DNA of 64,000 nt from Hydrolagus colliei. Its lineage: Eukaryota. Positions 46,301 to 64,000 of the stretch are shown here, in pieces. The stretch is from positions 20,708,001-20,772,000 of the forward strand of contig CM068751.1 in NCBI GenBank assembly GCA_035084275.1, read 5' to 3'. Position 1 is the stretch's first letter. Each line of letters opens with the position of its first letter. The notes below the pieces were generated by a model. It did no database searches and was not told where the DNA came from. It was given only the letters and a program-made list of their open reading frames with translations. A program made the position numbers and the translations under genes.

Positions 46301-49300
46301 CCAATATATATATATATGTATATGTATATATGTATGTGTTTCAAGAAAACAAGAAGTAAATATCTATGACAGAGGTTTGCCAGGAATCTTGCAAATGAAG
46401 AAACAAAAAAAACAGGTTTGAATGAATGTGGCTGATAATTGTGATCTTTTTATCTTCGGGGATTTGCAGTCATTCAGAACTTAACCTCAGAGAATACAGT
46501 GGGTGGTGTGAGAAAAGGGTGTGGATGGAAATAATGAGCCTGAAGGGACAAATCTTTCTTCCCTTTTCTTACCCGTAAAATTAGCAGTTGACAAAGAAAT
46601 TCTTAAACTTACATATACTCTGTAGTAGAACGAATCATCAAAGGGAAAGCCATTTGGGATGTAGATGATGGGAGACACAAAGTCACGACTTCTAACTTGG
46701 AGTTTAATATCTCCATATTCTGCTCCATAGCCAAACAGCCGAATCTCTACAGAAAAAAAAATCAGTGAAATAATTGGGTCCTTTACAAACAAATGATTGT
46801 TACAATGTTCATGGTGTTCTACGGATTCCAGCGTAAAAGGACAGAACCATCGCATATCAGATCAGATTAATCAGCAATGACATCATACTTATAATAAAAA
46901 TTCAACATATCATTCGAATTAAAGTGCTTTAATTTGACACAATGCTTCACGCCCATAAATGCAATTGATGTTGTCATTGCACCTTTTTAAAGATGTGTAA
47001 AACTCTCCCATTTGTGAATGTGGACACAATTTGTTGACAGTGATGTCACCGACAAACCCATGTAATTTCCCGATTTAGAAGAAAAAATTGCCTGGATCAA
47101 ACGAATATCCCAGAACCTTCCCACAGAGTGGACAACAACAACTTGGATTTATATAGCGCCCTCCACGCCGGACGGAGTCTCAGAGCGCTTTTTTGGACGC
47201 AAGCGATGGAACCGAGTGCCAATATCTCACAAGAATTCTCCATGCAAAGGTAATACATTTATTCTCCTTAATTATGACAGACATCTTACATTACATCATC
47301 AATATTTCTCTCTTGCAAGTTACTAAAGGATCAGTGTTTGGTAATATTTCACTAAATCAATTGTTTTTTAAAAAAATATCTCTTATGAAACTATACCTCT
47401 GCAAATGATGCCATCACCTTCGTACCCTTCCTTGCAGGAACATGTGAAAGACCCCAAAGTATTGTTACATATCCCGTTATCCCGATCACAGTTGTCAGTC
47501 CGCTGGGAACATTCATTGACATCTGAATAGGAGAAGAAAATCCCCAAATAGCTAAAGTTAAAAATTAAATACCGGTAGTTAAACAAAATTGTCTTCATGA
47601 ACGTTAATTATCAAATTGGAATCAAATTGAAAGAACGTGTACCATAGTCTCATAAGCATAGTTACATTAAAGACAGTTAGTTAAATAATTTATAAAAGGT
47701 AACTCACCGAGTGACATCTCAATCTATAGAATAACAACAACAACAACAACAAATTACACTTATAAAGCGCCTTTCACGTGGGGAGGACGTCCCAAGGCGC
47801 TGGACAGGAGGCGTGTGACCCGAGCTGGGAGGGGAGTGTACGGGAAGGGGTGAGACACAAAGGGGAGGTCGAAGAATTCGGGGGGGAACAAAAGGCACGG
47901 TCGAAGAGGAAAGTCTTCAAACCGGCCTTGAAAGAGGAAAGGGAAGAAACGAGATGGAGGGATTGCGGGATGGAATTCCATAGGGTCGGAGCAGAAAAAC
48001 TGAAAATGATGAACTCATTCCTCAACAACAAAAAAAAAAGTTCTGATTTGCATGGATTTAATTGTGTTCAATTCCATAGAGTAGTTTCAGGCTAAGAAAA
48101 AGTAGCATTACATACAGTACAGTATTAATGATATTTAATAATTCCGTATGAGCGATTTTATAAACAGAATTGCTCTTCACTTTGCTCCAGTGTGGAAATA
48201 TCAGGTCTCTGTGACCCGATCATGGCAGCTTGAATTAGATTGATCTTCCCACTCTGTGTCACTACATTCTGTACGCTATTACAATACAGTACTGTATATC
48301 GTGCTTCAGCTTAAACCAATGCTGCGTTTATATTGAACCTCAGGTTACATCTACATTGCTAAAAGATGGCGATTTTTGACCTGCTGCACACAGTAATTCA
48401 TCTAGAAGCAAAACAGCTTCACTCCCATCCTATAAACACAATTATAATAATAATAACACTTGCATTTGATATAGCACCTATTACATGTCAAAGCGCTTCA
48501 TAGAAGTTACTGTAAAGTGAATTGACTGTATTTCTGGGACTGTACCTGTCTGGCAGCTCTTGCCTTTCCAGTTGTTCTGGCAAAAGCACCAATAGTCATT
48601 AATCTGGTTCACACAGAACCCATTATGTTGGCATGGAGAGCTGTGACAGTTGTCAATCACTGTAATTGCATTTAAAAAAAAAAGTTAATTAAGAAATTGT
48701 ATCTCGAGTGAATCCCCAGAAGCAAATCACACACACACACACATACATACATACACACACACATATATACATCCACACACACACATCCACACACACATGC
48801 ACAAACACACTTTCCAGCAAGTGGAGGTGGGGTGGGGCTAAGTCAATACATAGAACTTGCGCAGCAAAGCTGCCCTTAACAGTAATTCTCTGATTGCAAT
48901 GTGTTAACATAGACTCACCTTGTGTACAGAGTCTACCAGTATATCCAGGAGCACAAGTACAATTAAAAGCATTCATTAAATCTGTGCAGGTGGCTCCATT
49001 GTAACAAGGGTGGCTCTGACAATCGTCGATATCTGATGAACAAACAAATTCAATGAACTATTTCAGCATTGTCTGTTTCTGTAATGGAAGGCAACTCGGT
49101 GGAATATAAAGGCATGAAAAGATTATCAATGTATATTATTACTAAAGCACCAAATGTACAGCTACGTTTATATTGCTTAGCTCAGGTCCACCTCATTTTT
49201 GAAGCATAGCTATTCTCGAACACCGAGTAGGAGTTACAGTTTTGTTTATTGAATCAGAGAGTTTATATCATTGTCTGTAAATACTTTTGAAAAACCGCAG

Positions 49301-52300
49301 GATAGAAGATGAGATGCAGGTAAACAGCTCACCGGTTTCGCAGAGGCTTCCAGTGAAGCCTGCGTAGCACGTACAGCTGTAACTTCCTGGATTGTTTTTA
49401 CATATTCCATTAGTGCAGGGATTAGACACGCATTCATTTACATCTGTAAACAAGAACCACAAATAAAGAGTTCATTTGGTGAGAACATTTCATCTGAATA
49501 CTGCATACAGATATTGAAGGAAATAATTAATTTGGATAATTAACTCACTAATGTATGGCTGAAGAAGAATGTTACATGATTATACAGTACTTTCATGATT
49601 CTCCTGATTATTTGGGCCCCGTTGTGGATAAGGGAACATTGGGGATAACACAAGGTACAAATGGATTATATTTTCTCTCTCCAAGTATTTATCTGTCTGT
49701 GAATGACTGACTCTGTTTCTCACCCTGTCTGATATTGTCTTCATCAGCTCAGTCGTTTCTGAAATACTGAATAGATATCATGACCAGAACCACAACGCTG
49801 ACTGTAACATACTATGAAATGTACCTTCAGAGCAAAATTGTCCAGTCCAGCCATTAGCGCAGTTACAGTAGAATGAGCCATCTGTGTTCATGCAAGTTCC
49901 TCTCCTGTTGCAAGGGTTTGATGTGCACTCATTGATATCTGGCAGAAATACACCCAAATGTTTAAATACAAGGAAAATATCCTGATTATATTATAATAAT
50001 TGTAACATTAATATTGATAACATTAATATAATAGTACTGAACAGGAATATAAGATGTGAAAAGCGCTATATCAAATGCAAGGATTATTATATTATTATTA
50101 TTGCATATTTGCCCCATCATTATTAACACTATTTTGTATTTTAAAATAATTTTTCATAAATGAGAGAAATATGCTGTAGATCCTCTTTGTCCTGTTAAGA
50201 TGATTGTCCTGTTTAGACCCACCTGTTTGACCATAGAATTGGCCACTCACCTCCCTTCTCTGCCCTCCACCCATCCTGATTCCTCCCGCTCACCAACCCC
50301 CAGGTTCAGGTCCTAATCCCTGACTATTCAGCGCCTGAGGACATCCTCCCGATGTAAAGATGCTTAACAAATGTCATTTTGTATTGGGTGTAAATATCAT
50401 GTAAGTAGTTAGGCTTCAGAAGATTGTAACATTAAATCAGAGTCTTTCATTTTGACTTTATACTGAAGGGGGTTTAGGAGAGACCACAGAGAATTTATGA
50501 ACAGGCTCTCTCGGGAGAAGCAGGAAATGAAACACTGATTCCTTCAAACGCAGATTAGATCATTTTCTTTTAGGAAATAACATGATGGAGTAACATAGGG
50601 ACATACGTGAACGTGACCTCCAGGAGGTGGAAGGCAAACTAGATGGACTTTGGTCCTTTATTCATCTAACGTTTCTTAGGTTTTTATGGTGGTGCTTTAA
50701 TAAGATATTTGATTCTCAGACTCAGAGACATCTTAGCTGAACGCTGTTAGTCAGTTGAAGGCAAGGGTTTAATTGGTCAAATAAATTGTTCATTCCATTA
50801 TATTTCTTATGTTCCTATTCACTTAATTCGGGAAATTAAATATGTGAGATCTAGGCAATGATGTAGGAGGAGATACTTGTGTGAGAAACAACAGACTTGG
50901 TGAAATACCTAATCTTATCTCATTTGACATTTTTTATTGTAATGTATCTGAACTAACCTTCGTTACACAAACGTCCTCTCCAGCCAGAATAGCAATCACA
51001 CTCATAGTTAGTTTTTTCATTAACGCAGGATCCATTGACGCAGGGAGAGCTTTCACACTGATCAATTTCTAGAACAAACAGAAAACAAATGTTACAGGAG
51101 ATTTCTCTATAGATTTTCTTGTGACCATCCGAGTTAACATATGCCACACCACATCAGTATTGTTGTTACATTTATCCTAGAAATCTTTGCTGAAATATTT
51201 CACATGTATTACAAATATTATACAATTTGTATATGCCTTTCATATTAGGAGGCTGCTTCAAAGTCCTTAACACAATTGATGTGAATCCACACATAATATA
51301 ATAATAATATTGCATTTTATATAGCGCATTTCACATCTTCTAGAAGTCTCAAAGCGCTTCACAGAATTCACTGTAAAGTGAATTACAAATGTATATTTGT
51401 GGGCGAAACGCGGCAGCCAATCGCTCACGGCAGCGTCCCCCCCCACAAACAGCCGTGGATTGCAATGACCAATTTCTTACAGTTTATTTTTTGAAGGATT
51501 ATTATTGCGAGAATCGCTTCCTTTGCAAAATGCCATCAGCGGAACTTCTTGTGCAGCGTCCATACGTGTAGGAAGAGTGGCGTTGACGGCAACACAATAC
51601 TCAGGAGTTGGGCGTGAGGTTAGCCTGGGAAACCAGTCATTCCACACAGGAAATGGTATTGTATCACTGCTCAGGTAACCAGAGGTCCAAAGAGCAATAA
51701 AACCATTCTGTGCTCTAGTGAACAAGCATTTGACAATAGGCTGCCTTGTAGGTTGAAGAGGGGCGTGCGGAGGAATAGTTAATAAGCCAGTCAGGGAGTG
51801 AGTGAATTACCGTGGTGACAGAGGTGGGGGCAGGAGAAGAAATGACTTCAATTAGTGTGTTATTCTCTAGGAGAGACATTCTGCTTAGTTCACTACAGTA
51901 TTCCGATGGGTCCAATACAACTAACATTCTTGGATATTCTTATTGGAGAAGATCGAGCTTTTAGTTTTGCTGTCAAAGTGATTGATTCTGACTTAACAAA
52001 AGCAGAAACGGCAATCCAATCAATCACCACGTGCAGAAAAAAGACCTAATCCACGTTTCTGAAATGCCACAATCTTTTGCAAATAGCTTGTGGCTTTGTG
52101 GTTGAATTTTGACTTACCGTTACACGTTCTTCTGTCCCCTTCATCCAACACATAACCTGGTTGACATGAACATTTATAGCTCCCCAGAGTATTCACACAG
52201 CGCTGGGTACACATATTCAGTGCTATGGAATTGCATTCGTTGACATCTGTATGAAGAAAGAATTTACAATTACTTTTGGAGATATACTGATGACATGAGG

Positions 52301-55300
52301 AAGATATTTCTATTCAGGTAAACTGAAATCTGATAGACAATAAACCAGCAAATCTTTCAGTCTTTTAATGTTTCCTGCTTTCTGTGCAGGATAAGCTTTA
52401 ATGGGAATAAAATGAAATTGAGTCTCTTACGTTTACCTCACAAAGAAAAAATCAAACATACAAATAACATCCATGCAGTAATATCTCACCTTCACAGACT
52501 GTTTGCATGGTATTTTGAACAAATCCGTTCATACACTTGCACTGTTCTGTGTTATCAACAAAACATTCTCCATTGGTGCACTGGAGTTCACAAGCGTCGA
52601 TCGCTGTATTGACAACAATAGAATATATCATTTAAAAGCTTCTTATTATTCCAAACCCTGACAGCAACAATATTTTTGACAATTAAAATCATAAACGAGA
52701 ACAATGTAACTTGTTGGCCCTTTCCTCTCACCTTGGCAAGTCTTTCCATCTGATTTTAATTCAAATCCTGTCTTACAATTGCATTCATAGCCTCGGATGT
52801 CTTCAAATTTATTTTGTTCTATACAGATGTGGTCACAATCGTTATCTCCATTGCTGCATTCATCTGAATCTGTAAGTTAAACAGTATATAATGCAATTGT
52901 TTACATATTTCATCTTAACTATCTTTGTGGAGTTTTGTAGCTCATTGGTTAGAGCGCTTGCCTTGCAAGTGGGAGACCTGGGTTCAATTCCAGGCATTGT
53001 AAAACCTTGGGCAAGTTTCCTTACTACACAAGCACGATAAACAATGTGGGAAAATAAACAATGATGAATTGGTCTTTTCAATCCACAATTGTTTGTGGGG
53101 ACGCTGCTGTGCGCAATTGGCTGCCTCATTTCACCCACAAATATACAGCCAGTTTATTTTACAGCATATTCTGTGACTAGAAGATGTGAAAAGCGCGATA
53201 TCAAATCCAAGGATTATTATTAGTATTATTATTGTTTGCCGTATCAAATGTACTTAAATAATAATTTAGGAAAGGCCCTGTAAGCAAAGTACCTTCACCC
53301 CAATGTTAGTCGAAGTGAATATTCAGTGTTGGCTGCAAAGATAAATCACAGAAACTTTGCTGCCCAACTACAAGCTTTGCCCTGCATTGCTGGACATTTC
53401 ATGACAACGTGCGCTCCAACCTGAACTCCTTGCTCGCTACAAGACGACACAGATCAGTTGAGAGTAAAGTAAAATGAAGTTCAGCAAGTCAGAAAGTGCG
53501 TGGGTAAAGTTTAGCCAATAGTTTCAATTAAATATGAAAACAATTTGTCTTTGAAGTTACCTGTGTGCTGCAGCACTGACACCCCTGTGTTGGTCTTGTT
53601 CCCCGTTGTCACAGTTCTGATTGTGATTCTGTATTCACGGCCAGGTTTTAAACCGGAAAAGTTTGCAGTTAAATATTCGGTCGACTGTACAACAATGTTT
53701 TGTTGGGCCTCCGACGGCGATGTCAATCTGACATTATATGATAGCGCGGTTCCTTGTGCTGCTTCCCAGATAACTGCCAGAGATGTGTTCTGAATTCCAG
53801 TCGCTGGAAAGGTGATATTCCTGACAAATGCTGGGACTGGAACAAGCAAAAACATTCTTACATTAAATTCTAACTCGCGACAACACTTAGATTTTTGAAC
53901 TGCGAGTGTCATTAATTCACGTTTCAAATCCCCTCATCAGGATGCTACAGTAGTGTTGCAAATCTTTAAACCTACCATGAACCACTCATGACTTAAATAC
54001 TGCCCTTCTCCTCCTCTCAGGTAGAAGAACAAATCAAAGCGCATTAAAGAGGCAGAGCAGATCAAGGTAGATGAGTGGGTAAGGTAAGCAGGAGATGGCA
54101 CTCTAAAAAGTGTTTGTTTTTCTCTCCAGCATTTGAAAGCAAAAAAGGGAGTGAGGTATTTAGAGAATGTGTCCCAGAGAGTATGATCAAGGTGTCTGAA
54201 AGCTCATCTGTTGTTAGTGGGATGAAGAGATAATTAACCATTTTATTCCTTAGTTCCTTTGAGGTTTCTACTCCTGTTCCTCTGGAATTCCAACCTGCTC
54301 TATATATGTACCTTTTATCTTCCCTACGTCCCCAAGTGCTGAAACAAAGATCCACTTTTTTTTTGTTCCACAAACTCAATCTTTCCAAGGACCCTTGTAG
54401 AATTATTTAACTCTCTTTATCTTCTGTAACTCCTAAAATCTACAACAAACTATGAAACCCAAGTTTGGCATCATCATTCTCTCCTACATTTTACAATGTT
54501 TCTGAAGTTCACAATTTCTCAATATTTCTCAATTGAGATATACAATAGATATACAGAAAAAGATGATGTCTATTCGATCAAAATAAAATGAAGGACAATA
54601 GATCCAATTCCAGATTTCTAAATACTCAATACATTCAGTATAATTTTAAAAGTAAAGCTCCCTCTACTGGAAATACTATCTGATGGGTAGGGTTCATTTA
54701 TTAATTTAAAGGTTAGACCCAATGTAAACGGTTCAGAACTTTACCTGTAGTCACTTCCAAGGATCGATTTAGAAATTTATTGAATGTTTCAGTGAACAGA
54801 ACATCGACAGTGTAGGTTTGACCTGGATTAAGGTCAGAAAATGTGCAGGTATTTTCAGCGAAGTTAAATGTGCAGTTGTTGTGAATTTCTCCATCAATTT
54901 TGACTATGTATCCACACGTATCATGGATGTCATCAGACCACCTCAAGGTGAAAGTTTTGTTTTGGATGTACTTTGCTGAAATGTCTCCAAGATCTAAAGT
55001 AACATTTAACAGAGTCAATAACAATGACAGACTGGAGAAGTTTAAGAAAATTACTTCAAATGGTTTCATGTAAATAAATCCTGCCATACAACAATAACTC
55101 AACAAGATATCCTGCAATAGTTCAACAGTAATTCAGTAATAGACATACGTAACCCATATTAAAGGAGAAAAATATGAAACAAATCAACCCTATAGCCTAT
55201 CATAAACGAACAATATAGTCTTCAATAACAGGAATACAATCCTACAATTGAGAAGTTATATATTCCACAATACCTTGTTGAGTAAGTTGGCGACACAAGG

Positions 55301-58300
55301 CTTGGGATGTTGGTGAGCTGCGTGTTGACAAATCTGTAATAATGTACGGAGTGGATGTTCCAATGGTGGAGTATGTGGTACTGAATGGTGTTGGAAGTTT
55401 TGTCATCGTGAAAATCGTTGTCCTTTGTATACCTGCAAAGGAGAAATAACACACAGTGTATCTATTGCTTTTGGGAAGATATTACGAAGCAGATATTTAA
55501 ATGGTGCATCTAATTGCCTTATTTTATCTAATTGGTGACACTGCAGTAAAGATCATGCCCAGGAATAGACCATCCACCCTGTCAAGCCCGCTCTACCATC
55601 TTGTTACATTATTGTTGAAATGCAATTTAACACTATTTTCACTTCTAATGCTTGCTACTTTTCCACCACATTTGTCAAAACAAAAGAAATGTTAATTTCT
55701 TAATTCAAACATGAATAACCTGAATCTGCATTTAAAGGATTCACTTCACAATTGCGGGGAAATTCAATGTGAATGTACTTTTAATAAATTTATTTGCAAT
55801 TTTGGTTGAATTGTGATACATGATAACTGTCTTGGAATCTTTCCTACCTGTTGTTTCAGCTCTTGACGTTGTGGAAGGGCTCAGAGTTGCAGATGATTTT
55901 GTTGACGAGCTTGATTTGGATGTCCTGGTTGGTGTAATTTTTGCTATGGATTTCATGAAACATTCAGAAATATTGTTGAAAAAACAGCCTTGCACATTCC
56001 TCAATATCAAACACGAGGACTATTATAAATAAAGCCAAATGGGGAAAAGTCCCAGCACCTTGGGGACGTCCTCCCATGGTGAAAGGCACTCTAGAAATGT
56101 CAATTTGTTGGCAACATTTACGTGGACAATACAACTAAATTGTGGATTTATTGTTCATGGTGCAGATAAAAGTTTCAGAACAAAAGCATCTGGGACAGCA
56201 AAGCCCAACTCTCCCGAATGGAAACCATCAAGTGAATAGTGTTGGTACCTGTTGTTTTCCTGGTGGAAGATGGAATTGTTGTGGAAGGGATTGCAATTGT
56301 AGATGGTTCTACTGTGGTGGCTTCAGTTGTAGCAATTGATGTTGTGACAATTTCTGCTGCAAAGATGGTTCAAAATGTGAACAAGAAAAACTTGTGTTCT
56401 TAGTGATCAATTGAGAGATGCTCTCAGACATGGCTTCATATATAGAGGAAAACCAAGATGCAGACACTGATGTAAAACAAGCAAACATGTGGGACACCAA
56501 AGGCGAACTCTCCCAAATGGAAACAAAGTAAATAGTGTTGTTACCTATTGTTTCCAACGTGGAAGGTGGAATTGTTGTCGAAAGGATTGCAGGTGTGGAT
56601 GGTTCTACTGTGCTGGCATCAGTTGTGGCAATTGATGTGGAGCCTATTTCTCCTGCAACGTTGATTCAAAAAGAGATTGATGAAGCGTGTCTTTTTATTG
56701 AATTTAATATGGTATTGTGGACATTTACTGTTCAGTATCCAGTAAGATATTTTGTTTGGCAAATAGGTAGGCATTCATCACATGTGATGTTTGAGCTGTT
56801 GCTGCAGATGAAGTGATCACATTTGTAGATGTGTGTACTAATACCCCTGATTCCATAATAATATTTGCTACTGATATGGCAGCAAATATAAGGAAATAGT
56901 GTAGTTGGTAAAATCAGTGAATTGAAAAATTCAGATGCATTGACCCACATGTGGAGCCAAATGTCCGTGAAGCCAATAATGTAAAATAGGCCAATATTTG
57001 TAACTGGAAAGGCCAACTGTCCCAAATGGAAATCAGCAAGTGAATAGTGTTGGTACCTGTTGTTTCCCTGGTAGAAGATGGAATTGTTGTGGAAGAGATT
57101 GCAGTTGTAGATGGTTCTACTGTGGTTGTTTCAGATGTTACAGTTAATGTTGAGTCTGTTTCTGCTGCAAAGATGATGCAAAATGTGAAAAAGAAAAACA
57201 GCTGCTCTTATTCATGGCGTGGGAGATGCTCTCAGTCATGGCTTCATATGTAGCGCCAAACCAAGATAAAGGCACTAACGTAAAAGAAGCAAACATAAGC
57301 GACACCAAAGCGCAACTCTTCCATTAAGTGAATAGTATTCCTACCTGTTGTTTCCAAGGTGGAAGGTGGAATTGTTGTCGAAAGGATTGCAGCTGTGGAT
57401 GGTTCTACTGTGCTAGCTTCAGTTGTGGCAATTGATGTTGTGACAATTTCTGCTGCAAATATGATTGGAAATGTGAATCAGATCTGCTCTTATTGATTCT
57501 TATGCTGTATTGGGCAACATCACAGATCAAGTAAATTATGATGTTTGCCCAATACATAGGCATTCACAATACGTGATTTTAGAGCTTGTGCTGCAGATGA
57601 TGAGATTACATGTGTAGATGTGAGTGCGCTAATTACTATTGATAGTGTTTGTACCTGTTGTTTCCCTGGTGGAAGATGGAATTGTTGTGGAAGGGATTAA
57701 AGTTGTAGATGGTTCTTCTGTGGTTGCTTCAGTTGTGGCAATTGATGTTGTGACAATTTCTGCTGCAAAGATGGTTCAAAATGTGAATAAGATAAACTCA
57801 TGTTCTTAGTGATCAAATGAGAGATGCTCACAGACATGGCATCATATATAGAGGAAAACCAAGAGGAAGCCACTAACATAAAACAAGCAAACATATGGGA
57901 CACCAAAGGTCTACTCTCCCATTAAGTGAACAGTGTTGGTACCTGTTGTTTCCCTGGTGGAAGATGGAATTGTTGTGGAAAGGGTTGCAGTTGTAGATGG
58001 TTCTACTGTGGTGGCTTCAGCTGTGGCAATTGATGTTGTGACAATTTCTGCTGCAAAGATGGTTGAAAATGTGAATAAGAAAAACAAGTGTTCTTGTTGA
58101 TCAAGTGGGAGATTCTCTCAGACATGGTTTCATATGTAGAGCAAAACCAAGATGATGCAACATATGTAAGGCAAGCAAACATGTGGGACATCATAGCTCA
58201 AATCTCCCAAATGGAAACCATCAAGTGAATAGTGTTGGTACCTGTTGTTTGCAAGGTGGAAGGTGGAATTGTTGTGGAAGGGATTGCAGTTGTGGATGGT

Positions 58301-61300
58301 TCTACTGTGCTGGCTTCAGTTGTGGCAATTGATGTTGTGACAATTTCTGCTGCAAAGATGGTTTAAATGGGAATAAGATAAACAGATGCACGTATTGATC
58401 AAGTGTGAGATGCTCTCAGACATGGCTTCATATATCGAACAAAACCAAGATGAAGCCACTGATGTAAAACAAGCAAACACATGGGACACCAAAGTTCAAC
58501 TCTCCCATCAAGTGAATTGTGTTGGTACCTGTTGTTTCCAAGGTGGAAGGTGGAATTGTTGTGGAAGGGATTGCAGTTGTAGATGGTTCTACTGTGCTGG
58601 CTTCAGTTGTGGCAATTGATATTGTGACAATTTCTGCTGCAAATATGATTAAAAATGTGAAAAATGATTAAAAAAATGATACGCTTTTATTGATCAAATG
58701 AGAGATGCTCTCAGACATGGCTTTATATATAGAGCAAAACCAAGATGAAGCCACTGAAGTAAAACAAGCCAGCATGTGAGAAACCAAAGCCCAAGTGTCC
58801 CAAACAGAATCCATCAAGTGAATAGTGTTGCTACTTGTTGTTTCCCTGGTGGAAGATAGAATTGTTGTGGAAGGGATTGAAATTGTAGATGGTTCTACTG
58901 TGGTGGCTTCAGTTGTGGCAATCGATGATGTGACATTTTCTGTTGCAAAGATGGTTCAAAACGTGAACAAGAAAAACAAGTGTTCTTGTTGATCAAGTGG
59001 GAGATGCTCTCAGACATGGTTTCATATGTAGAGCAAAACAAGATGATGCAACATATGTAAGGCAAGCAAACATGCTTGCCTTACATATGCCCCTGATTCC
59101 ATAATAACATTTGAAACTGATATGGCAGCAAATATCAGGAAATAGTGTAGTTGGTAAAATCAGTGAATTAAAACGATCAGATACCCACGTGTGGAGCCAA
59201 ATGTCCATGAAGCCAATAATGTAAAATAGGCCAATATTTGGGACATCATAGCTCAAATCTCCCAAATGGAAACCATCAAGTGAATAGTGTTGGTACCTGT
59301 TGTTTCCAAGGTGGAAGGTGGAATTGTTGTGGAAGGGATTGCAGTTGTGGATGGTTCTACTGTGCTGGCTTCAGTTATGGCACTTGATGTTGTGACAATT
59401 TCTGCTGCAAAGATGATTCAAAATGTGAATCAGACAAACAGTTGCTCTTATTGATTCTTATGCTGTATTGGGCAACATCACAGATCAAGTAAATTCGGAT
59501 GTTTGGCAAATACATAGGCATTCACAAAATGTGATGTTAAAGCTTGTGATGCAGATGAAGAGATTACATGTGTAGATGTGAGTGCGCTAATTACTGTTGG
59601 TAGTGTTAGTACCTGTTGTTTCCAAGTTGGAAGGTGGAATTGTTGTAGAAGGGATTGTAGTTGTGGATGGTTCTACTGTGCTGGCTTCAGTTGTGGCAAT
59701 TGATGTTGTGACAATTGCTGCTGTAAAGATGATTCAAAATGTGAATAATTTTAATAAAAACATATGCTCTCATTGATCAAATGAGTGATGCTCTCAGCCA
59801 AGGCTTCATGTATAGAGGAAAACCAAGATATAGCCACTAGTGTAAAACAAGCAAACATGTGGGACACCAAAGGCCAACTATCCCAAATGGAAACCAAGTA
59901 AATAGTGTTGTTACCTGTTGTTTCCAAGCTGGAAGGTGGAATTGTTGTCGAAAGGATTGCAGTTGTGGATGGTTCTACTGTGCTGGCATCAGTTGTGGCA
60001 ATTGATGTGGAGCCTATTTCTCCTGCAACGTTGATTCAAAAAGAGATTGAAGAAGCGGGACTTTTTATTGAATTTAATATGGTATTGTGGACATTTACTG
60101 TTCAGTATCCAGTAAGATATTTTGTTTGGCAAATAAGTAGGCATTCATCACATGTGATGTTTGAGCTGTTGCTGCAGATGAAGTGATCACATTTGTAGAT
60201 GTGTGTACTAATACACCTGATTCCATAATAATATTTGCTACTGATATGGCAGCAAATATCAGGAAATAGTGTAGTTGGTAAAATCACTGAATTGAAAAAT
60301 TCAGATGCATTGACCCACATGTGGAGCCAAATGTCTGTGAAGCCAACAATGTCAAATAGGCCAATATTTGTAACTGGAAAGGCCAACTCTCCCAAATGGA
60401 AATCAGCAAGTAAATAGTATTGGTACCTATTGTTTCCCTGGTAGAATATGGAATTGTTGTGGAAGAGATTGCAGTTGTAGATGGTTCTACTGTGGTTGTT
60501 TCAGATGTTACAATTAAGGTTGAGTCTGTTTCTGCTGCAAACATGATGCAAAATGTGAAAAAGAAAAACAGCTGCTCTTATTCATGAAGTGGGAGATGCT
60601 CTCAGTCATGGCTTCATATGTAGCGCAAAACCAAGATAAAGGCACTAACGTAAAACAAGCAAACATAAGGGAAACCAAAGACCAACTCTCCCATTAATTG
60701 AATAGTATTCCTTCCTGTTGTTTCCAAGGTGGAAGGTGGAATTGTTGTGGAAGGGATTGCAGTTGTGGATGGTTCTACTGTGCTGGCTTCAGTTGTGGCA
60801 ATTGATGTTGTGACAATTTCTGCTGTAAATATGATTGGAAATGTGAAACAGACACACAGCTGCTCTTATTGATTCTTATGCTGTATTGGGCAACATCACA
60901 GATCAAGTAAATTATGATGTTTGGCCAATACATAGGCATTCACAATGCGTGATCTTAGAGCTTGTGCTGCAGATGATGAGATTACATGTGTAGATGTGAG
61001 TGCGCTAATTACTATTGATAGTGTTAGTACGTGTTGTTTCTCTGGTGGCAGATGGAATTGTTGTGGAAGGGATTAAAGTTGTAGATGGTTCTACTGTGGT
61101 TGCTTCAGTTGTGGCAATTGATGTTGTGACAATTTCTGCTGCAAAGATGGTTCAAAATGTGAATAAGATAAACTCGTGTTCTTAGCGATCAAATGAGAGA
61201 TGCTCACAGACATGGCTTCATATATAGAGGAAAACCAAGATGAAGCCACTAACATAAAAGAAGCAAACATATGGGACACCAAAGGCCTACTCTCCCATGA

Positions 61301-63748
61301 AGTGAACAGTGTTGGTACCTGTTGTTTCCCTGGTGGAAGATGGAATTGTTGTGGAAAGGATTGCAGTTGTAGACGGTTCTACTGTGGTGGCTTCAGCTGT
61401 GGCAATTGATGTTGTGACAATTTCTGCTGCAAATATGATTGGAAATGTGAATCAGACACACAGCTGCTCTTATTGATTATTATGCTGTATTGGGCAACAT
61501 CACAGATCAAGTAAATTATGATGTTTGGCGAATACATAGGCATTCACAATGCGTGATCTTAGAGCTAGTGCTGCAGATGATGAGTTTACATGTGTAGATG
61601 TGAGTGCGCTAATTACTATTGATAGTGTTAGTACCTGTTGTTTCCCTGGTGGAAGATGGAATTGTTGTGGAAGGGATTGCAGTTGTAGATGGTTCTACTG
61701 TGCTGGCTTCAGTTGTGGCAATTGATGATGTGACAGTTTCTGTTACAAAGATGGTTCAAAATTTGAATAAGAAAAACAAGTGTTCTTGTTGATCAAGTGG
61801 GAGATGCTCTCAGACATGGTTTCATATGTAGAGCAAAACCAAGATGATGCAACCTATGTAAGGCAAGCAAACATGCGGGACATCATAGATCAAATCTCCC
61901 AAATGGAAACCATCAAGTGAATAGTGTTGGTACCTGTTGTTTCCAAGGTGGAAGCTGGAATTGTTGTGGAAGGGATTGCAGTTGTGGATGGTTCTACTGT
62001 GCTGGCTTCAGTTGTGGCAATTGATGTTGTGACAATTTCTGCTGCAAATATGATTGGAAATGTGAATCAGACAAACAGCTGCTCTTATTGATTATTATGC
62101 TGTATTGGGCAACATCACAGATCAAGTAAATTATGATGTTTGGCCAATACATAGGCATTCACAATATGTGATCTTAGAGGTTGTGCTGCAGATGATGAGA
62201 TTACATGTGTAGATGTGAGTGCGCTAATTACTATTGATAGTGTTAGTACCTGTTGTTTCCCTGGTGGAAGATGGAATTGTTGCGGAACGGATTAAAGTTG
62301 TAGATGGTTCTACTGTGGTTGCTTCAGTTGTGGCAATTGATGTTGTGACAATTTCTGCTGCAAGGATTGGTTCAAAATGTGAATAAGATAAACTCGTGTT
62401 CTTAGTGATCAAATGAGAGAAGCTCACTGACATGTCTTCATATATAGAGGAAAACCAAGATGAAGCCACTAACATAACACAAGCAAACATATGGGACACC
62501 AAATGCCAACTCTCCCATCAAGTGAATAGTGTTGGTACCTGTTGTTTCCAAGGTGGAAGGTGGAATTGTTGTGGAAGGGATTGCAGTTGTAGATGGTTCT
62601 ACTGTGGTTGCTTCAGTTGTGGCAAATGATGTTGTGACAATTTCTGCTGCAAAGATGGTTTCAATGGGAATAAGATAAATAGATGCACGTATTGATGAAG
62701 TGTGAGATGCTCTCAGACATGGCTTCATATATCGAACAAAACCAAGATGAAGCCACAAATGTAAATCAAGCAAACACATAGGACACCAAAGGCCGACTCT
62801 CCCACCAACTGAATAGTGTTGGTACCTGTTGTTTCGAAGGTGGAATGTGGAATTGTTGTGGAAGTGATTGCCGTTGTAGATGATTCTACTGTGCTGGCTT
62901 CAGTTGTGGCAATTGATGTTGAGCCTATTTCTCCTGCAACGTTGATTAAAACAGAGATTGATAAAACATGTGGATTTATTTAAAGTAAAACTGTATTGTG
63001 GACAATTACTGTTCAGTGTCCACTAAATTATTATGTGTGGCAAATAAGTAGGCATCTGTCATGTGCGATGTTTGAGATGTTGCTGCAGATGACGTGATCA
63101 CTTTTGTAGATGTGTGTACTAATGCCCCTGATTCCATAATAACATTTGAAACTGATATGGCAGCAAATATCAGGAAATAGTGTAGTTGGTAAAATCAGTG
63201 AATTGAAATGATCAGATACATTGACCCAAATGTGGAGCCAAATCTCCATGAAGCCAATAATGTAAAATAGGCCAATATTTGGGACAGCAAAGGCCAACTC
63301 TCACAAATGGAATCCATCAAGTGAATAGTGTTGGTACCTGTTGTTTCCAAGGTGAAAGGTGGAATTGTTGTGGAAGGGATTGCAGTTGTAGATGGTTCTA
63401 CTGTGCTGGCTTCAGTTGTGGCAATTGATATTGTGACAATTTCTGCTGCAGAGATGATTAAAAACGTGAAAAATGATTAAAAAAATGATACGCTCTTATT
63501 GATCAAATTAGAGATGCTCTCAGACATGGCTTTATATATAGAGCAAAACCAAAATGAAGCCACTGAAGTAAAACAAGCCACCATGTGAGAAACCAAAGCC
63601 CAAGTGTCCCAAACAGAATCCATCAAGTGAATAGTGTTGCTACTTGTTGTTTCCCTGGTGGAAGATAGAATTGTTGTGGAAGGGATTACAATTGTAGATG
63701 GTTCTACTGTGGTGGCTTCAGTTGTGGCAATCGATGATGTGACATTTT
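1268..63748 (-). CDS. MUC4: MUC4-like giant transmembrane mucin, about 88 exons, 5'-partial, with duplicated NIDO-AMOP-VWD cassette
   Basis: Exons traced with GT/AG ends and matching phases. C-terminal [28 protein letters not shown] and [21 protein letters not shown] closely match human MUC4 as I recall it (CEHLSMKLDAFFGIFFGAL, VIDFLNNQL, MFGDPHITTLDGVSYTFNGLG). Confidence 0.88.
1775..1960 (+). mobile_element. Deu-type SINE, 5'-truncated
   Basis: gctgctgtgcgcaattggctgccgc core and ggattatatt tail. Confidence 0.75.
2079..2182 (-). CDS. MUC4: Cytoplasmic tail exon ([11 protein letters not shown]...[12 protein letters not shown])
   Basis: 104 nt, phase 1 to 0, AG/GT flanks, open frame. Confidence 0.75.
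2535..2700 (+). mobile_element. Deu-type SINE, truncated
   Basis: Same core, gctgctgtgcgcaatcggctgccgcgtttc. Confidence 0.75.
2735..2787 (-). CDS. MUC4: Cytoplasmic tail exon ([17 protein letters not shown])
   Basis: 53 nt, phase 2 to 1, ttctcacag acceptor, gtaagt donor. Confidence 0.75.
3456..3644 (-). CDS. MUC4: EGF end plus transmembrane helix exon
   Basis: [50 protein letters not shown], 189 nt, phase 2-2. Confidence 0.92.
3933..4101 (-). CDS. MUC4: Juxtamembrane EGF exon
   Basis: [15 protein letters not shown]...[25 protein letters not shown], 169 nt, phase 1-2. Confidence 0.9.
4135..4600 (-). mobile_element. L2 LINE 3' fragment
   Basis: [20 protein letters not shown]2 C-terminal motif and (GTT)n tail. 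Confidence 0.85.
4659..4861 (-). CDS. MUC4: SEA-like domain, C-terminal exon
   Basis: [29 protein letters not shown], 203 nt, phase 2-1. Confidence 0.88.
5554..5612 (-). CDS. MUC4: SEA-like domain, middle micro-exon ([19 protein letters not shown])
   Basis: Strong pyrimidine acceptor ttctctatctcttag, gttggt donor, supplies the needed phase 0 to 2 bridge. Confidence 0.7.
6615..6955 (-). mobile_element. tRNA-derived Deu-type SINE
   Basis: B-box gttcgaatcc, Deu core, ATT tail. Confidence 0.8.
6990..7102 (-). CDS. MUC4: SEA-like domain, N-terminal exon
   Basis: [37 protein letters not shown], 113 nt, phase 1-0. Confidence 0.85.
7594..7788 (-). CDS. MUC4: EGF exon
   Basis: [28 protein letters not shown]...[12 protein letters not shown], 195 nt, phase 1-1. 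Confidence 0.9.
8752..8868 (-). CDS. MUC4: Calcium-binding EGF exon, duplicated copy
   Basis: [38 protein letters not shown], 117 nt, phase 1-1. Confidence 0.85.
9069..9108 (-). pseudogene. Internally deleted fossil EGF exon (second copy at 10286-10325)
   Basis: Retains exon start GCAATGGAAT and end TGTAAAACAGAATTCACAG followed by gt, but acceptor is AC and the middle is missing. Confidence 0.65.
9969..10085 (-). CDS. MUC4: Calcium-binding EGF exon, duplicated copy
   Basis: Near-identical to 8752-8868, offset 1217. Confidence 0.85.
11186..11302 (-). CDS. MUC4: Calcium-binding EGF exon
   Basis: [22 protein letters not shown]..., 117 nt, phase 1-1. Confidence 0.88.
11703..11801 (-). CDS. MUC4: Calcium-binding EGF exon
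   Basis: [32 protein letters not shown], 99 nt. Confidence 0.88.
12395..12557 (-). CDS. MUC4: Cassette 2: EGF exon
   Basis: [15 protein letters not shown]...CFPGVNC...[13 protein letters not shown], phase 0-1. Confidence 0.9.
12770..13080 (+). mobile_element. Degenerate SINE remnants
   Basis: aaagatcccatggcattattt and two family tails (gtgaaaggcac, gtgaaagccgct...ggattatt). Confidence 0.5.
13679..13857 (-). CDS. MUC4: Cassette 2: post-VWD beta-sandwich and EGF start exon
   Basis: [10 protein letters not shown]...[24 protein letters not shown], phase 1-0. Confidence 0.9.
14516..14647 (-). CDS. MUC4: Cassette 2: post-VWD exon
   Basis: [19 protein letters not shown]...DLNLT, 132 nt, phase 1-1. 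Confidence 0.85.
15006..15245 (-). CDS. MUC4: Cassette 2: VWD C-terminal Cys-rich exon
   Basis: [11 protein letters not shown]...FQPIF...[24 protein letters not shown], 240 nt. Confidence 0.87.
15613..15714 (-). CDS. MUC4: Cassette 2: VWD exon
   Basis: [17 protein letters not shown]...YNYGET, 102 nt. Confidence 0.92.
16630..16809 (-). CDS. MUC4: Cassette 2: VWD exon
   Basis: ...[12 protein letters not shown]...[14 protein letters not shown], 180 nt. Confidence 0.92.
17231..17312 (-). CDS. MUC4: Cassette 2: VWD exon
   Basis: [27 protein letters not shown], 82 nt, phase 0-1. Confidence 0.88.
17747..17955 (-). CDS. MUC4: Cassette 2: VWD first exon with GDPH site (17933-17944)
   Basis: [23 protein letters not shown]...[11 protein letters not shown]. 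Confidence 0.95.
19158..19277 (-). CDS. MUC4: Cassette 2: AMOP last exon
   Basis: [39 protein letters not shown], 120 nt. Confidence 0.92.
19405..19545 (-). CDS. MUC4: Cassette 2: AMOP middle exon
   Basis: [36 protein letters not shown], 141 nt. Confidence 0.85.
19870..20480 (-). mobile_element. L2 LINE 3' fragment
   Basis: [20 protein letters not shown]...IQFIQNSA and [14 protein letters not shown]. Confidence 0.88.
21002..21184 (-). CDS. MUC4: Cassette 2: NIDO end and AMOP start exon
   Basis: [10 protein letters not shown]...[14 protein letters not shown]...SCPCTFSQG, 183 nt. Confidence 0.92.
21422..21510 (-). CDS. MUC4: Cassette 2: NIDO exon
   Basis: SGDGYFVND...[13 protein letters not shown], 89 nt, phase 2-1. 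Confidence 0.88.
21735..21865 (-). CDS. MUC4: Cassette 2: NIDO exon
   Basis: [21 protein letters not shown]...GMNWDV...VLIGFN. Confidence 0.93.
23017..23163 (-). CDS. MUC4: Cassette 2: NIDO exon
   Basis: EYITS...[14 protein letters not shown], 147 nt, phase 0-0. Confidence 0.9.
23959..24120 (-). CDS. MUC4: Cassette 2: NIDO exon
   Basis: [10 protein letters not shown]...[20 protein letters not shown], 162 nt. Confidence 0.92.
24225..24535 (-). mobile_element. Full-length tRNA-derived Deu-type SINE
   Basis: A-box tagctcagtgg, B-box ggttcaattcc, Deu core, ATT tail. Confidence 0.85.
24850..24983 (-). CDS. MUC4: Cassette 2: first NIDO exon
   Basis: [12 protein letters not shown]...[18 protein letters not shown], 134 nt, phase 1-0. 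Confidence 0.92.
25987..27495 (-). CDS. MUC4: Large single-exon internal PTS (mucin) domain
   Basis: 1509 nt open frame, phase 1-1, repeats [11 protein letters not shown] / [10 protein letters not shown] and PTTTTT, gtaaga donor. Confidence 0.9.
26030..27395. repeat. Coding VNTR: 30/33-bp units plus an 18-bp unit block near 26030-26125
   Basis: Recurrent gaagaactgatgattggtgctgttgtggtt and gtggtggtgggtgttgtt. Confidence 0.95.
27764..28124 (-). mobile_element. Full-length tRNA-derived SINE with 29-bp flanking direct repeats
   Basis: A and B boxes, Deu core, (TTA)n tail, repeats at 27734-27762 and 28125-28153. Confidence 0.9.
28350..28700 (+). mobile_element. Degenerate CR1-like LINE RT fragment
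   Basis: [10 protein letters not shown] resembles the CR1 motif LVRPHLEYCV; multiple stops. Confidence 0.6.
28770..28898 (-). CDS. MUC4: cbEGF exon, middle array
   Basis: [43 protein letters not shown]. Confidence 0.92.
29240..29362 (-). CDS. MUC4: cbEGF exon, middle array
   Basis: [41 protein letters not shown]. Confidence 0.92.
30603..30725 (-). CDS. MUC4: cbEGF exon, middle array
   Basis: [41 protein letters not shown]. Confidence 0.92.
31100..31339 (-). CDS. MUC4: Double cbEGF exon, middle array
   Basis: [12 protein letters not shown]...[12 protein letters not shown]...GNGTFCE, 240 nt. Confidence 0.93.
31806..31925 (-). CDS. MUC4: cbEGF exon, middle array
   Basis: [40 protein letters not shown]. 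Confidence 0.92.
32200..32600 (-). mobile_element. Degenerate CR1-like LINE 3' end
   Basis: [11 protein letters not shown]...IKTYLE resembles the CR1 ORF2 terminus. Confidence 0.5.
32866..32988 (-). CDS. MUC4: cbEGF exon, middle array
   Basis: [41 protein letters not shown]. Confidence 0.92.
33220..33345 (-). CDS. MUC4: cbEGF exon, middle array
   Basis: [42 protein letters not shown]. Confidence 0.92.
33590..33880 (-). mobile_element. L2-like 3' remnant
   Basis: Family tail and similarity to 45130-45375. Confidence 0.55.
34249..34429 (-). CDS. MUC4: Cassette 1: EGF exon
   Basis: [28 protein letters not shown]...[13 protein letters not shown], phase 0-1. Confidence 0.92.
34640..35250 (+). 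mobile_element. CR1 LINE 3' fragment
   Basis: LYKA...PHL...CVQFWS..YKK.I..ME..Q.RFTR.IP motif with frameshifts. Confidence 0.85.
35973..36157 (-). CDS. MUC4: Cassette 1: post-VWD beta-sandwich and EGF start exon
   Basis: [24 protein letters not shown]...[15 protein letters not shown], 185 nt. Confidence 0.9.
37473..37619 (-). CDS. MUC4: Cassette 1: post-VWD cadherin/Ig-like exon
   Basis: NFPPNITG...[15 protein letters not shown], 147 nt. Confidence 0.88.
37655..37895. other. Assembly gap (N run) inside an intron
   Basis: Run of N. Flanking exons join in phase, so no exon needs to be hidden in it. Confidence 0.98.
38127..38381 (-). CDS. MUC4: Cassette 1: VWD C-terminal Cys-rich exon
   Basis: [12 protein letters not shown]...[10 protein letters not shown]...[12 protein letters not shown], 255 nt. 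Confidence 0.9.
38526..38642 (-). CDS. MUC4: Cassette 1: VWD exon
   Basis: [17 protein letters not shown]...IFFDFGLT, 117 nt. Confidence 0.92.
39055..39219 (-). CDS. MUC4: Cassette 1: VWD exon
   Basis: ...[12 protein letters not shown]...[10 protein letters not shown], 165 nt. Confidence 0.92.
39533..39602 (-). CDS. MUC4: Cassette 1: VWD exon
   Basis: [23 protein letters not shown], 70 nt, phase 0-1. Confidence 0.88.
40049..40260 (-). CDS. MUC4: Cassette 1: VWD first exon with GDPH site (40238-40249)
   Basis: [28 protein letters not shown]...[10 protein letters not shown]. Confidence 0.95.
41031..41150 (-). CDS. MUC4: Cassette 1: AMOP last exon
   Basis: [39 protein letters not shown], 120 nt. 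Confidence 0.92.
41413..41643 (-). CDS. MUC4: Cassette 1: AMOP middle exon with Trp/Tyr-rich insert
   Basis: [21 protein letters not shown]...[26 protein letters not shown]..., 231 nt, phase 1-1. Confidence 0.85.
42286..42498 (-). CDS. MUC4: Cassette 1: NIDO end and AMOP start exon
   Basis: [11 protein letters not shown]...[10 protein letters not shown]...[15 protein letters not shown], 213 nt. Confidence 0.92.
42955..43073 (-). CDS. MUC4: Cassette 1: NIDO exon
   Basis: SGSKFSNTG...[13 protein letters not shown], 119 nt, phase 2-1. Confidence 0.87.
43394..43530 (-). CDS. MUC4: Cassette 1: NIDO exon
   Basis: [30 protein letters not shown]...ALMGYY. Confidence 0.93.
44113..44292 (-). CDS. 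MUC4: Cassette 1: NIDO exon
   Basis: VYDF...[17 protein letters not shown], 180 nt, phase 0-0. Confidence 0.9.
44684..45125 (+). mobile_element. tRNA-derived SINE interrupted by a 114-bp locally templated insert
   Basis: Head gagtcctgtagatcagtggttagagc, Deu core, (ATT)n tail. Confidence 0.85.
45130..45375 (-). mobile_element. L2-like 3' remnant
   Basis: cttcaaggccggtctcaagaccctcctcttcgaccg and family tail. Confidence 0.75.
45493..45666 (-). CDS. MUC4: Cassette 1: NIDO exon
   Basis: FSDNGLILF...[23 protein letters not shown], 174 nt. Confidence 0.92.
46613..46746 (-). CDS. MUC4: Cassette 1: first NIDO exon
   Basis: [12 protein letters not shown]...[24 protein letters not shown], 134 nt, phase 1-0. 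Confidence 0.92.
47397..47522 (-). CDS. MUC4: cbEGF exon, N-terminal array
   Basis: [42 protein letters not shown]. Confidence 0.92.
47730..48000 (-). mobile_element. L2 LINE 3' fragment
   Basis: [10 protein letters not shown]...[14 protein letters not shown] and (GTT)n tail. Confidence 0.85.
48546..48659 (-). CDS. MUC4: Notch-type EGF exon
   Basis: [37 protein letters not shown], 114 nt. Confidence 0.9.
48727..48810. repeat. Imperfect (CA)n microsatellite
   Basis: Direct reading. Confidence 0.85.
48919..49032 (-). CDS. MUC4: Notch-type EGF exon
   Basis: [38 protein letters not shown], 114 nt. Confidence 0.92.
49333..49443 (-). CDS. MUC4: Notch-type EGF exon
   Basis: [37 protein letters not shown], 111 nt. 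Confidence 0.92.
49825..49938 (-). CDS. MUC4: Notch-type EGF exon
   Basis: [38 protein letters not shown], 114 nt. Confidence 0.92.
50958..51068 (-). CDS. MUC4: Notch-type EGF exon
   Basis: [37 protein letters not shown], 111 nt. Confidence 0.92.
51290..51505 (-). mobile_element. Deu-type SINE, 5'-truncated
   Basis: Deu core and ATT tail on the minus strand. Confidence 0.8.
52118..52246 (-). CDS. MUC4: cbEGF exon
   Basis: [43 protein letters not shown]. Confidence 0.92.
52490..52603 (-). CDS. MUC4: EGF exon
   Basis: [37 protein letters not shown], 114 nt, phase 1-1. Confidence 0.88.
52732..52869 (-). CDS. MUC4: cbEGF exon
   Basis: [46 protein letters not shown]. Confidence 0.9.
52925..53235 (+). 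mobile_element. Full-length tRNA-derived Deu-type SINE
   Basis: tagctcattggttagagcg, ggttcaattcc, Deu core, ATT tail. Confidence 0.85.
53561..53836 (-). CDS. MUC4: Fibronectin type III exon
   Basis: PAFVRNIT...TSLAVIW...SYNVRL...[17 protein letters not shown], 276 nt, phase 1-1. Confidence 0.9.
54060..54500 (-). mobile_element. Degenerate CR1/L2 reverse transcriptase fragment
   Basis: DDAKLG...[11 protein letters not shown] resembles FADDTKL...LQ.DLD.L..W. Confidence 0.5.
54745..54993 (-). CDS. MUC4: Fibronectin type III exon (Cys-containing)
   Basis: TFTLRW...GYIVKI...[16 protein letters not shown], 249 nt, phase 1-1. Confidence 0.88.
55274..55432 (-). CDS. MUC4: Thr/Ser-rich linker exon
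   Basis: [22 protein letters not shown]...[11 protein letters not shown], 159 nt, phase 1-1. Confidence 0.75.
55848..55943 (-). CDS. MUC4: Ser/Thr-rich exon
   Basis: [31 protein letters not shown], 96 nt, phase 1-1. Confidence 0.78.
56249..63748 (-). CDS. MUC4: Array of 23 PTS mini-exons (108 or 105 nt, consensus [36 protein letters not shown])
   Basis: Low-coordinate ends at 56249, 56545, 57057, 57345, 57655, 57943, 58242, 58529, 58835, 59297, 59613, 59915, 60427, 60715 (donor lost), 61031, 61319, 61635, 61934, 62250, 62539, 62826, 63338, 63644. All phase 1-1; no stops seen in the copies I translated. Confidence 0.82.
60715..60822 (-). pseudogene. Probable pseudo-exon copy of the PTS mini-exon
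   Basis: Donor GT changed to GA (t at 60713 versus a at 57343 in its paralogue). Confidence 0.65.
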
Positions 63749-64000
63749 CTGTTGCAAAGATGGTTCAAAACATGAACAAGAAAAACAAGTGTTCTTGTTG
63801 ATCAAGTGGGAGATGCTCTCAGACATGGTTTCATATGTAGAGCAAAACCACGATGATGGAACATATGTAAGGTAAGCAAACATGTGGGACATCATAGCTC
63901 AAATCTCCCAAATGGAAACCATCAAGTGAATAGTGTTGGTACCTGTTGTTAAACTTGTGATGCAGATGAAGAGATTACATGTGTAGATGTGAGTGCGCTA

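Follow-up and report, generated by a model that had tools for sequence, protein, structure and literature searches.

In the window, by which we mean the whole 64,000-nucleotide stretch of Hydrolagus colliei DNA analysed here, the minus strand carries a gene that likely encodes a MUC4-like membrane mucin with two modules and a long N-terminal stalk (Table 1). The full protein is predicted to contain ~9,650–9,800 residues. The candidate signal peptide is encoded by a hydrophobic exon of 21 codons, which is followed by a strong phase-1 donor and does not differ between the two gene copies; it was chosen among several candidates of a simple scan, and would place a signal peptide ahead of the Pro/Thr/Ser-rich (PTS) domain. 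Two GC donors in the exon chain (48564 and 32890) are probably wrong picks.

Table 1 Features of the mucin gene and its repeat array, in window positions unless a contig is named.
Feature	Position	Strand	Remark
Likely signal-peptide exon	C18:20836696-20836759		9.2 kb upstream of array
23 repeat units (105-108-nt Thr/Ser-rich segment + 179-404-bp spacer)	56249..63751	-	3' end of 190-unit array
Unit without first acceptor AG, donor weakened	63644..63751	-	105-nt exon or decaying copy
Unit without first acceptor AG	61635..61742	-	105 nt the only usable length (35 aa)
Unit, donor GT to GA	60715..60822	-	
Unit without first acceptor AG, donor weakened	58835..58942	-	105-nt exon or decaying copy
Diverged 24th unit, 96 nt, phase 1-1	55848..55943	-	Hand reading
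Non-repeat Thr/Ser-rich linker exon, 159 nt, phase 1-1	55274..55432	-	Hand reading
Two FN3 exons	53561..54993	-	Pfam PF00041
Nine EGF-type exons	47418..52869	-	Domain search and homologue alignment
First NIDO-AMOP-VWD-C8 module and subsequent exons	34249..46746	-	GDPH in exon starting 40260
Calcium-binding EGF domains, seven exons	28770..33345	-	
Single 1509-nt PTS exon, 10/11-aa repeats, phase 1-1	25987..27495	-	
Second NIDO-AMOP-VWD-C8 module and subsequent exons	13679..24983	-	GDPH in exon starting 17955
EGF exons and membrane-proximal region	3933..12557	-	
Hydrophobic membrane-spanning segment and cytoplasmic tail exons	2040..3644	-	Stop near 2040

The domains occur in the order NIDO, AMOP and VWD, and NIDO and VWD match Pfam in both modules. 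AMOP matches Pfam in module 2 only (E 7e-4, below the curated cut-off), and that of module 1 was located by homologue alignment. The GDPH cleavage motif found at the start of VWD in MUC4-like mucins (PMC8660890) is present in both modules, and cleavage is predicted. The four VWD1 exons encode no cysteine and VWD2 contains one; a VWD domain without cysteines is given as a feature of MUC4-like mucins in PMC1552070. EGF domains, a membrane anchor and a cytoplasmic tail are also present, the anchor being called from a hydrophobic stretch and 77–83% identity to shark proteins. A SEA domain near the membrane was suspected by eye, and neither the two membrane-proximal exons nor four homologues give a Pfam match to it. 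The gene does not fall in the Muc13 family, which has SEA without NIDO, AMOP or VWD, as NIDO and VWD are present.

Human MUC4 (PMC2360313, PMC8660890) shares the signal peptide, repeat, NIDO, AMOP, VWD with GDPH, EGF domains and membrane anchor. However, human MUC4 has a single module and a 48-bp repeat in one exon (PMC2360313), as the initial annotation states for mammals, whereas the chimaera gene combines two modules with FN3 and numerous EGF domains, and has an N-terminal repeat that is split as well as another repeat confined to a single exon. It thus departs from mammalian MUC4 proper, which has its repeat in one large exon 2 and one NIDO-AMOP-VWD module. Other counterparts are elephant shark mucin-4 (XP_042195169.1, XP_007898813.1), which is exon-by-exon collinear with the chimaera gene and mostly 60–90% identical, and the collinear white shark LOC121292663 (XP_041070867.1). 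Two NIDO/VWD/C8 modules flanking a central PTS region are common to the models of both sharks. A search for homologues with an open reading frame that had intron sequence inside returned nothing among 601 candidates.

The initial annotation placed a second, conventional VNTR in the same gene, with a repeat unrelated to that of the array. In accordance, the 1509-nt phase 1-1 exon (63% PTS; tandem periods of 30/33 nt) is not matched by any of the 23 units in blastn at E<=0.01, and very likely belongs to the same gene, since XP_041070867.1 aligns in the order FN3 exons, VNTR and tail. Two separate genes split at the VNTR are ruled out, because the EGF exon ending at 28770 joins the VNTR exon in phase and because single homologous proteins span both sides.

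At the other end of the window, an ungapped scan with one unit identifies 23 copies with no in-frame stop, a PTS content of 58% and pairwise identities of 78–99% (mean 89%), separated by spacers of 179–404 bp (median 196). The tandem of 23 symmetric units with one Thr/Ser/Pro repeat each is thus recovered as first described. GT directly follows base 108 in 22 of the 23 units, and AG occupies one of two tandem acceptor positions in all 23; across the remaining window, 0.57% of positions show the same AG/GT spacing. On these signals, we infer that the window units are spliced as exons. The uniform 108-nt length claimed for them stands for 19 of the 23, as three could be used at 105 nt only and one has a GA donor. 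The latter unit (60715-60822) is likely skipped, because read-through of the next spacer meets stops.

As anticipated, the array runs past the window edge. It continues to window-equivalent base 119528 (G000:C18:20827528) and comprises 190 units in 63 kb. Units are 105 or 108 nt long, as set by the tandem acceptors. AG, GT and an open frame are retained in 173/190 units, each of which lies between its own splice sites and in frame. The GT donor is absent in the other 17, two of which have GC; these 17 include one truncated unit, present five times, whose inclusion would introduce a stop. Non-GT donors are found in 13/39 units without the first CAG versus 4/151 with it, a contrast between non-independent duplicated copies that has a handful of events behind it. 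In copy 1 the array opens with a poor acceptor, AAG, before its first unit. Retention of the introns to give one long exon is ruled out, as 183/189 spacers have a read-through stop and the other six shift the frame. PTS repeats are expected to be disordered. A profile of the unit finds no protein match below E 0.17 with composition correction.

Comparison of long duplicated blocks shows constraint on the reading frame. Units account for 34% of the aligned bases, yet none of the 24 gap openings lies in one (P=1e-4), and the exon-versus-intron divergence check proposed at the outset gives 13.6 mismatches per kb in units versus 17.5 in spacers (P=0.018). Single-base stop alleles are absent where 3.4+1.8 (~5) are expected; a looser tree-based count expects ~12, but tree-based counts are inflated by recombination and the duplicated-block counts are preferred. 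Exon-breaking events number three (the truncated unit and two partial units) among units defined by an ungapped scan. Because gap openings avoid the units and point stops are absent, the units look like working exons. Their dN/dS is ~1 (0.9–1.15), and conservation of the amino-acid sequence is therefore not visible.

Array length visibly changes by DNA recombination. Blocks of 2.8–11.4 kb are duplicated at 96–99% identity, and contig C298, which matches copy 1 over 21.6 kb at 99.7%, carries 12 additional units inserted after the second unit counted from the 3' end. A neighbouring gene copy, ~99% identical outside the array, has 80 units, mostly in a 4-unit higher-order repeat of other subtypes. 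The suggestion that length is set by copy number fits the block duplications and the differing unit counts between assembled versions, and the DNA shows fixed splice-site loss as well as copy-number change.

The most probable explanation is that a 190-copy array of exon-plus-intron-like units, most of them likely spliced, lies at the front of the gene. Most units would be spliced as one exon of 35–36 residues each and joined into a predicted stalk of ~6,000 residues, which would bear sugars through O-glycosylation; the protein would be cleaved at both GDPH motifs. The coding length of the intact array would be 18.2–18.6 kb, near the top of the 7.5–19 kb range of the human MUC4 VNTR. Unequal crossing-over and the loss of splice sites from individual units would likely be the main sources of change in stalk length. 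With 17 of the 190 units lacking a GT donor, some units must presumably be skipped; since all units are frame-neutral, this would carry no cost.

The donors of the array are weak. G at position +5 is found in 7/173 array units (copy 1) and in 1/22 window units, versus 36/62 donors elsewhere in the gene; the array counts are independent of the generic vertebrate frequencies used to score non-array exons, which bias those exons towards strong donors. Some leaky skipping is therefore likely, although its regulation is conjectural. Weak donors also fit heavy or regulated skipping, a point against constitutive splicing. In-frame skipping of any subset of units, as first claimed, is possible with symmetric phase 1-1 units.

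Such a layout is not new. According to Lang, Hansson and Samuelsson (2006; PMC1552070), chicken and zebrafish Muc13 have one PTS repeat per exon, like the chimaera array, and control of length by splicing within one individual was proposed for chicken Muc13; no test of this 2006 proposal appears in the papers found. Chicken Muc13 is a mucin of the SEA type that has 12 or more repeats of 20 aa each and is backed by ESTs, whereas the chimaera gene would encode a mucin of the NIDO-AMOP-VWD type whose 190 units, of 35–36 aa, include dead ones and have tandem acceptors. The PTS region of chicken MUC2 extends over exons 32–45, which as described in PMC3549977 are not one-to-one with repeats, and splicing produces one in-frame 165-aa deletion. 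Xenopus FIM-C.1, as cited in PMC7177656, is highly polymorphic via alternative splicing; both it and MUC2 are secreted gel-forming mucins. In titin PEVK (PMC6469411 and PMC3575840), many short repetitive exons are missed by annotation tools and skipping sets length, but titin is an intracellular spring with a known regulator and offers a functional analogy only.

It is possible, but rather unlikely, that stalk length is adjusted to the tissue or condition through regulated skipping of units, in the manner of titin PEVK. Frame-neutral units, short introns and the near absence of +5 G would all suit such control, and homologue gene models include in-frame isoforms without EGF blocks or without 162 aa of PTS; the in-frame PTS shortening of chicken MUC2 also counts in its favour. 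A neighbouring array of 114 EGF exons keeps all its acceptors and donors, in contrast to the mucin array, which would favour regulated skipping too, but it is about half as diverged (0.038 versus 0.087) and thus a weak control. However, phase 1-1 is the default of the gene (39/63 other exons) and is shared by the EGF array, so symmetry is no evidence for regulated splicing, and one ordinary exon (37473) has the commonest array donor. Units and introns are nearly identical, which leaves little basis for copy-specific control, and chicken MUC2 splicing is reported as unchanged on infection (PMC3549977). A full splicing dial, suggested by the weak donors, is similarly doubtful: transcripts would keep different subsets, the mean would vary with tissue or challenge, gene conversion could reactivate silent units, and the design might be general in cartilaginous-fish mucins. 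If so, one allele would give a range of glycocalyx stalk lengths under titin-like control on a cell-surface mucin; if inclusion is constitutive, the array is an ordinary copy-number repeat made of exon-intron units. As 102/190 unit sequences are distinct and 162/188 skip-one junctions match no consecutive junction across 50+50 nt, skipping could be scored even with short RNA reads.

Still less probable is a satellite-like intron repeat derived from one exon, with few units used and a short stalk. The weak donors, the dN/dS near 1 and the co-amplification of dead units with blocks would fit it, as would the white and elephant shark public models, whose starts lie downstream of the array and whose N-terminal repeat is short or missing. 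These models also have no signal peptide, however, and therefore look truncated. Gaps that avoid units and the absence of stops argue against such a satellite, as does the basking shark homologue, whose model has an N-terminal repeat of period 72 (2×36) with a total score of 156.6 versus at most 116.5 in 200 shuffles, although the best single shark repeat does not exceed shuffles (29.3 against 29.6). Newt homologue models contain single-residue differences ~25 aa apart, a pattern expected of tandem acceptors. We propose, on the basking shark and newt models, that the N-terminal split-repeat design is conserved, and suggest that most of this protein is missing from the public shark and chimaera models.

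An assembly artefact, in which array length or the second gene copy arose from tandem-placed haplotypes or repeat expansion, is very improbable: the gene copies are 99% identical and no contig listed for the single public run X1 bridges their junction, but the unique region exists in three distinct assembled versions (22, 87 and 7 private differences in 14.3 kb), more than one diploid locus allows if the assembly is of one animal, and the distinct unit sequences and the long match of C298 to copy 1 also count against it. Run X1 covers introns and so behaves as DNA, its depth not being usable as copy number; 17/20 alleles listed for it are those of copy 2, and X1 may be the source sample. The two near-identical gene copies have amplified different unit subtypes.

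An ungapped scan finds 23 tandem Thr/Ser/Pro units in the window, as the initial annotation had claimed, and the spacers between them (179–404 bp) agree with its introns of about 180–400 bp. Pro, Thr, and Ser make up 58% of the residues encoded by the 23 units, and no stop is present. GT directly follows base 108 in 22 of the 23 units, AG lies immediately 5' of base 1 in 20, and a second AG occupies bases 2–3 in all 23; the same AG/GT spacing occurs at 0.57% as background. With one AG before base 1 and another at bases 2–3, each unit is predicted to carry a tandem acceptor yielding an exon of 108 or 105 nt, in phase 1-1 either way. The proposed unit size of 108 nt therefore stands for most units, qualified by the 105-nt option throughout; three window units are usable as 105 nt only, and one lacks a donor. 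The array crosses the window edge, as had been supposed.

Coordinates of the repeat arrays and related features. Numbers above 64000 are window-equivalent; adding 20,708,000 gives the position on G000:C18, the window's own contig.
Feature	Position	Strand	Remark
23 repeat units in the window	56249-63751	minus	ungapped scan
Array 1 (copy 1)	56249-119528	minus	190 units
Array 2 (copy 2)	193530-227265	minus	80 units
Candidate signal-peptide exon, copy 1	128759-128696	minus	identical candidate in both copies
Candidate signal-peptide exon, copy 2	233196-233133	minus	identical candidate in both copies
114 calcium-binding EGF exons of 126 nt, tandem	G000:C18:20956505-20997835	minus	
15 Thr/Ser-rich mini-exon-like units (~90-93 nt) and a signal-peptide-like exon	G000:C18:21002560-21018120	minus	
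Another mucin-like gene	G000:C18:21031700-21058700	plus	

None of the 24 gap openings between long duplicated blocks falls inside units, whose share of the bases is 34% (P = 1e-4); units also carry fewer mismatches than spacers (13.6 vs 17.5 per kb, P = 0.018). Single-base stop alleles are absent from 265 units (the five truncated units excluded), against expectations of 3.4 and 1.8 in the two subfamilies (P ~0.03 and ~0.16). Counting against exon constraint, dN/dS among units is ~1 and three exon-breaking events are present. In our reading, what is constrained is the frame and length of the units rather than the identity of their residues. The basking shark homologue has an N-terminal repeat of period 72, whose total score is above 200 shuffles and whose best single match fails to beat 200 shuffles. 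Newt isoform models show one-residue differences at two places ~25 aa apart within a 50-aa repeat, a pattern expected if small exons carried tandem acceptors.

A Pfam scan of 150 of the 174 minus-strand ORFs gives the domain order FN3 x2, EGF, NIDO, VWD, C8, EGF, a single PTS exon (the VNTR exon), NIDO, AMOP, VWD, C8, and EGF, with GDPH at the start of both VWD domains. A homology search with two exons returned 76 representatives and a sevengill shark mucin-like protein at 71%; the 10 representatives identified individually include elephant shark mucin-4 and proteins of white shark, coelacanth, newt, smooth-hound, and frog. The elephant shark protein aligns collinearly from 41629 to 2076. The white shark protein does so from 54988 to 3458, spanning the VNTR, which makes it very likely that the VNTR exon lies in the same gene. 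A script joined 63 exons into an in-phase, stop-free chain that extends from FN3 to the tail; since its boundaries were flexible, collinearity with homologues is the stronger argument for what appears to be one gene. With all 173 intact units kept, the array is predicted to encode 6,055–6,203 aa and the full protein ~9,650–9,800 aa.

The ungapped scan, extended from the window to 40 kb downstream and 200 kb upstream of it on both strands, finds 270 units, all of them on the minus strand; a short-word blastn search queried with 12 of these adds two partial ones. The segment 82–56200 is ~99% identical to 139530–193481, and the two arrays appear to be parts of two tandem gene copies. On copy 2, 56 of the 63 exons of copy 1 align over their whole length, and none of the 56 has a stop or has lost a splice site; the other seven, partial or gapped, were left unscored. 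The copy-2 array is predicted at ~2,640 aa from 75 units. A third version on a separate contig, C298, is nearest to copy 1 (private differences: C298, 7; copy 1, 22; copy 2, 87), and we infer that it is the other haplotype. At 42000–45999, where 17 of the 22 copy-1-private differences cluster, C298 matches copy 2, which hints that the copies have exchanged sequence by gene conversion or recombination. Three near-identical EGF exon units with a period of 1,217 bp lie at 8366–11377, and copy 2 apparently has fewer of them.

Array length varies by unit number: C298 has 12 additional units close to the array 3' end, blocks of 2.8–11.4 kb are duplicated within the array at 96–99% identity, and the subtypes amplified differ between copies 1 and 2. 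A GT donor is missing from 17 of the 190 units (6 GG, 5 truncated, 3 TT, 2 GC, 1 GA), mostly, over few independent events, from units without the first CAG (13/39 vs 4/151). Read-through of the window's GA unit, or inclusion of truncated units, would bring stops, so their fixed skipping is likely tolerated. The five truncated copies start at 100008, 94176, 89680, 78714, and 70974 and have a weak acceptor; inclusion could yield a secreted PTS-only product or message decay. Regulated skipping of units is unlikely. Array donors are weak: +5 G is present in 7 of 173, vs 36 of the 62 donors that the script picked in the rest of the gene, and the commonest array donor is also used by one ordinary exon. 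The neighbouring 114-exon EGF array keeps AG and GT throughout, yet shows only half the divergence. Phase symmetry is no evidence for regulated splicing, because 39 of the 63 other exons, the VNTR exon among them, are phase 1-1.

According to PMC1552070, chicken Muc13 has one repeat per exon, a design suggested to be ancestral, the PTS of zebrafish Muc13 is divided, and length control by splicing has already been proposed. PMC3549977 describes the PTS of chicken MUC2 as spread over several exons, with one case in which splicing removes 165 aa in frame, and saw splicing unchanged upon infection. FIM-C.1 is cited as polymorphic via splicing in PMC7177656. The human MUC4 layout is described in PMC2360313 and PMC8660890, and titin is covered by PMC6469411 and PMC3575840; excerpts of PMC4948705 hold no information on exons. 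A search of the literature outside subscription journals listed no paper on a MUC4-like gene of cartilaginous fish with its PTS domain split into a mini-exon array. We regard the feature as real and, by analogy, its design as working like that of chicken Muc13, but in a MUC4-like gene and with ~15 times the reported unit number. Mammalian MUC4 differs in having its tandem repeat in one large exon and a single NIDO-AMOP-VWD module, where this gene has a split array and two modules.

Each of the 114 EGF exons is phase 1-1 and free of stops, has its splice sites intact, and encodes six cysteines; the introns between them are mostly 110–410 bp. The 15-unit Thr/Ser array sits upstream of them; it is likely a further split PTS domain at the same locus, and the two arrays likely form one gene with two exon–intron arrays. 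The plus-strand mucin-like gene combines one Thr-rich open frame (~1,150 aa) with EGF-rich exons after it. Among seven candidates scored, the sole other genome match of the VWD exon is a distant one (38%) at G000:C3:92997244-92997438.
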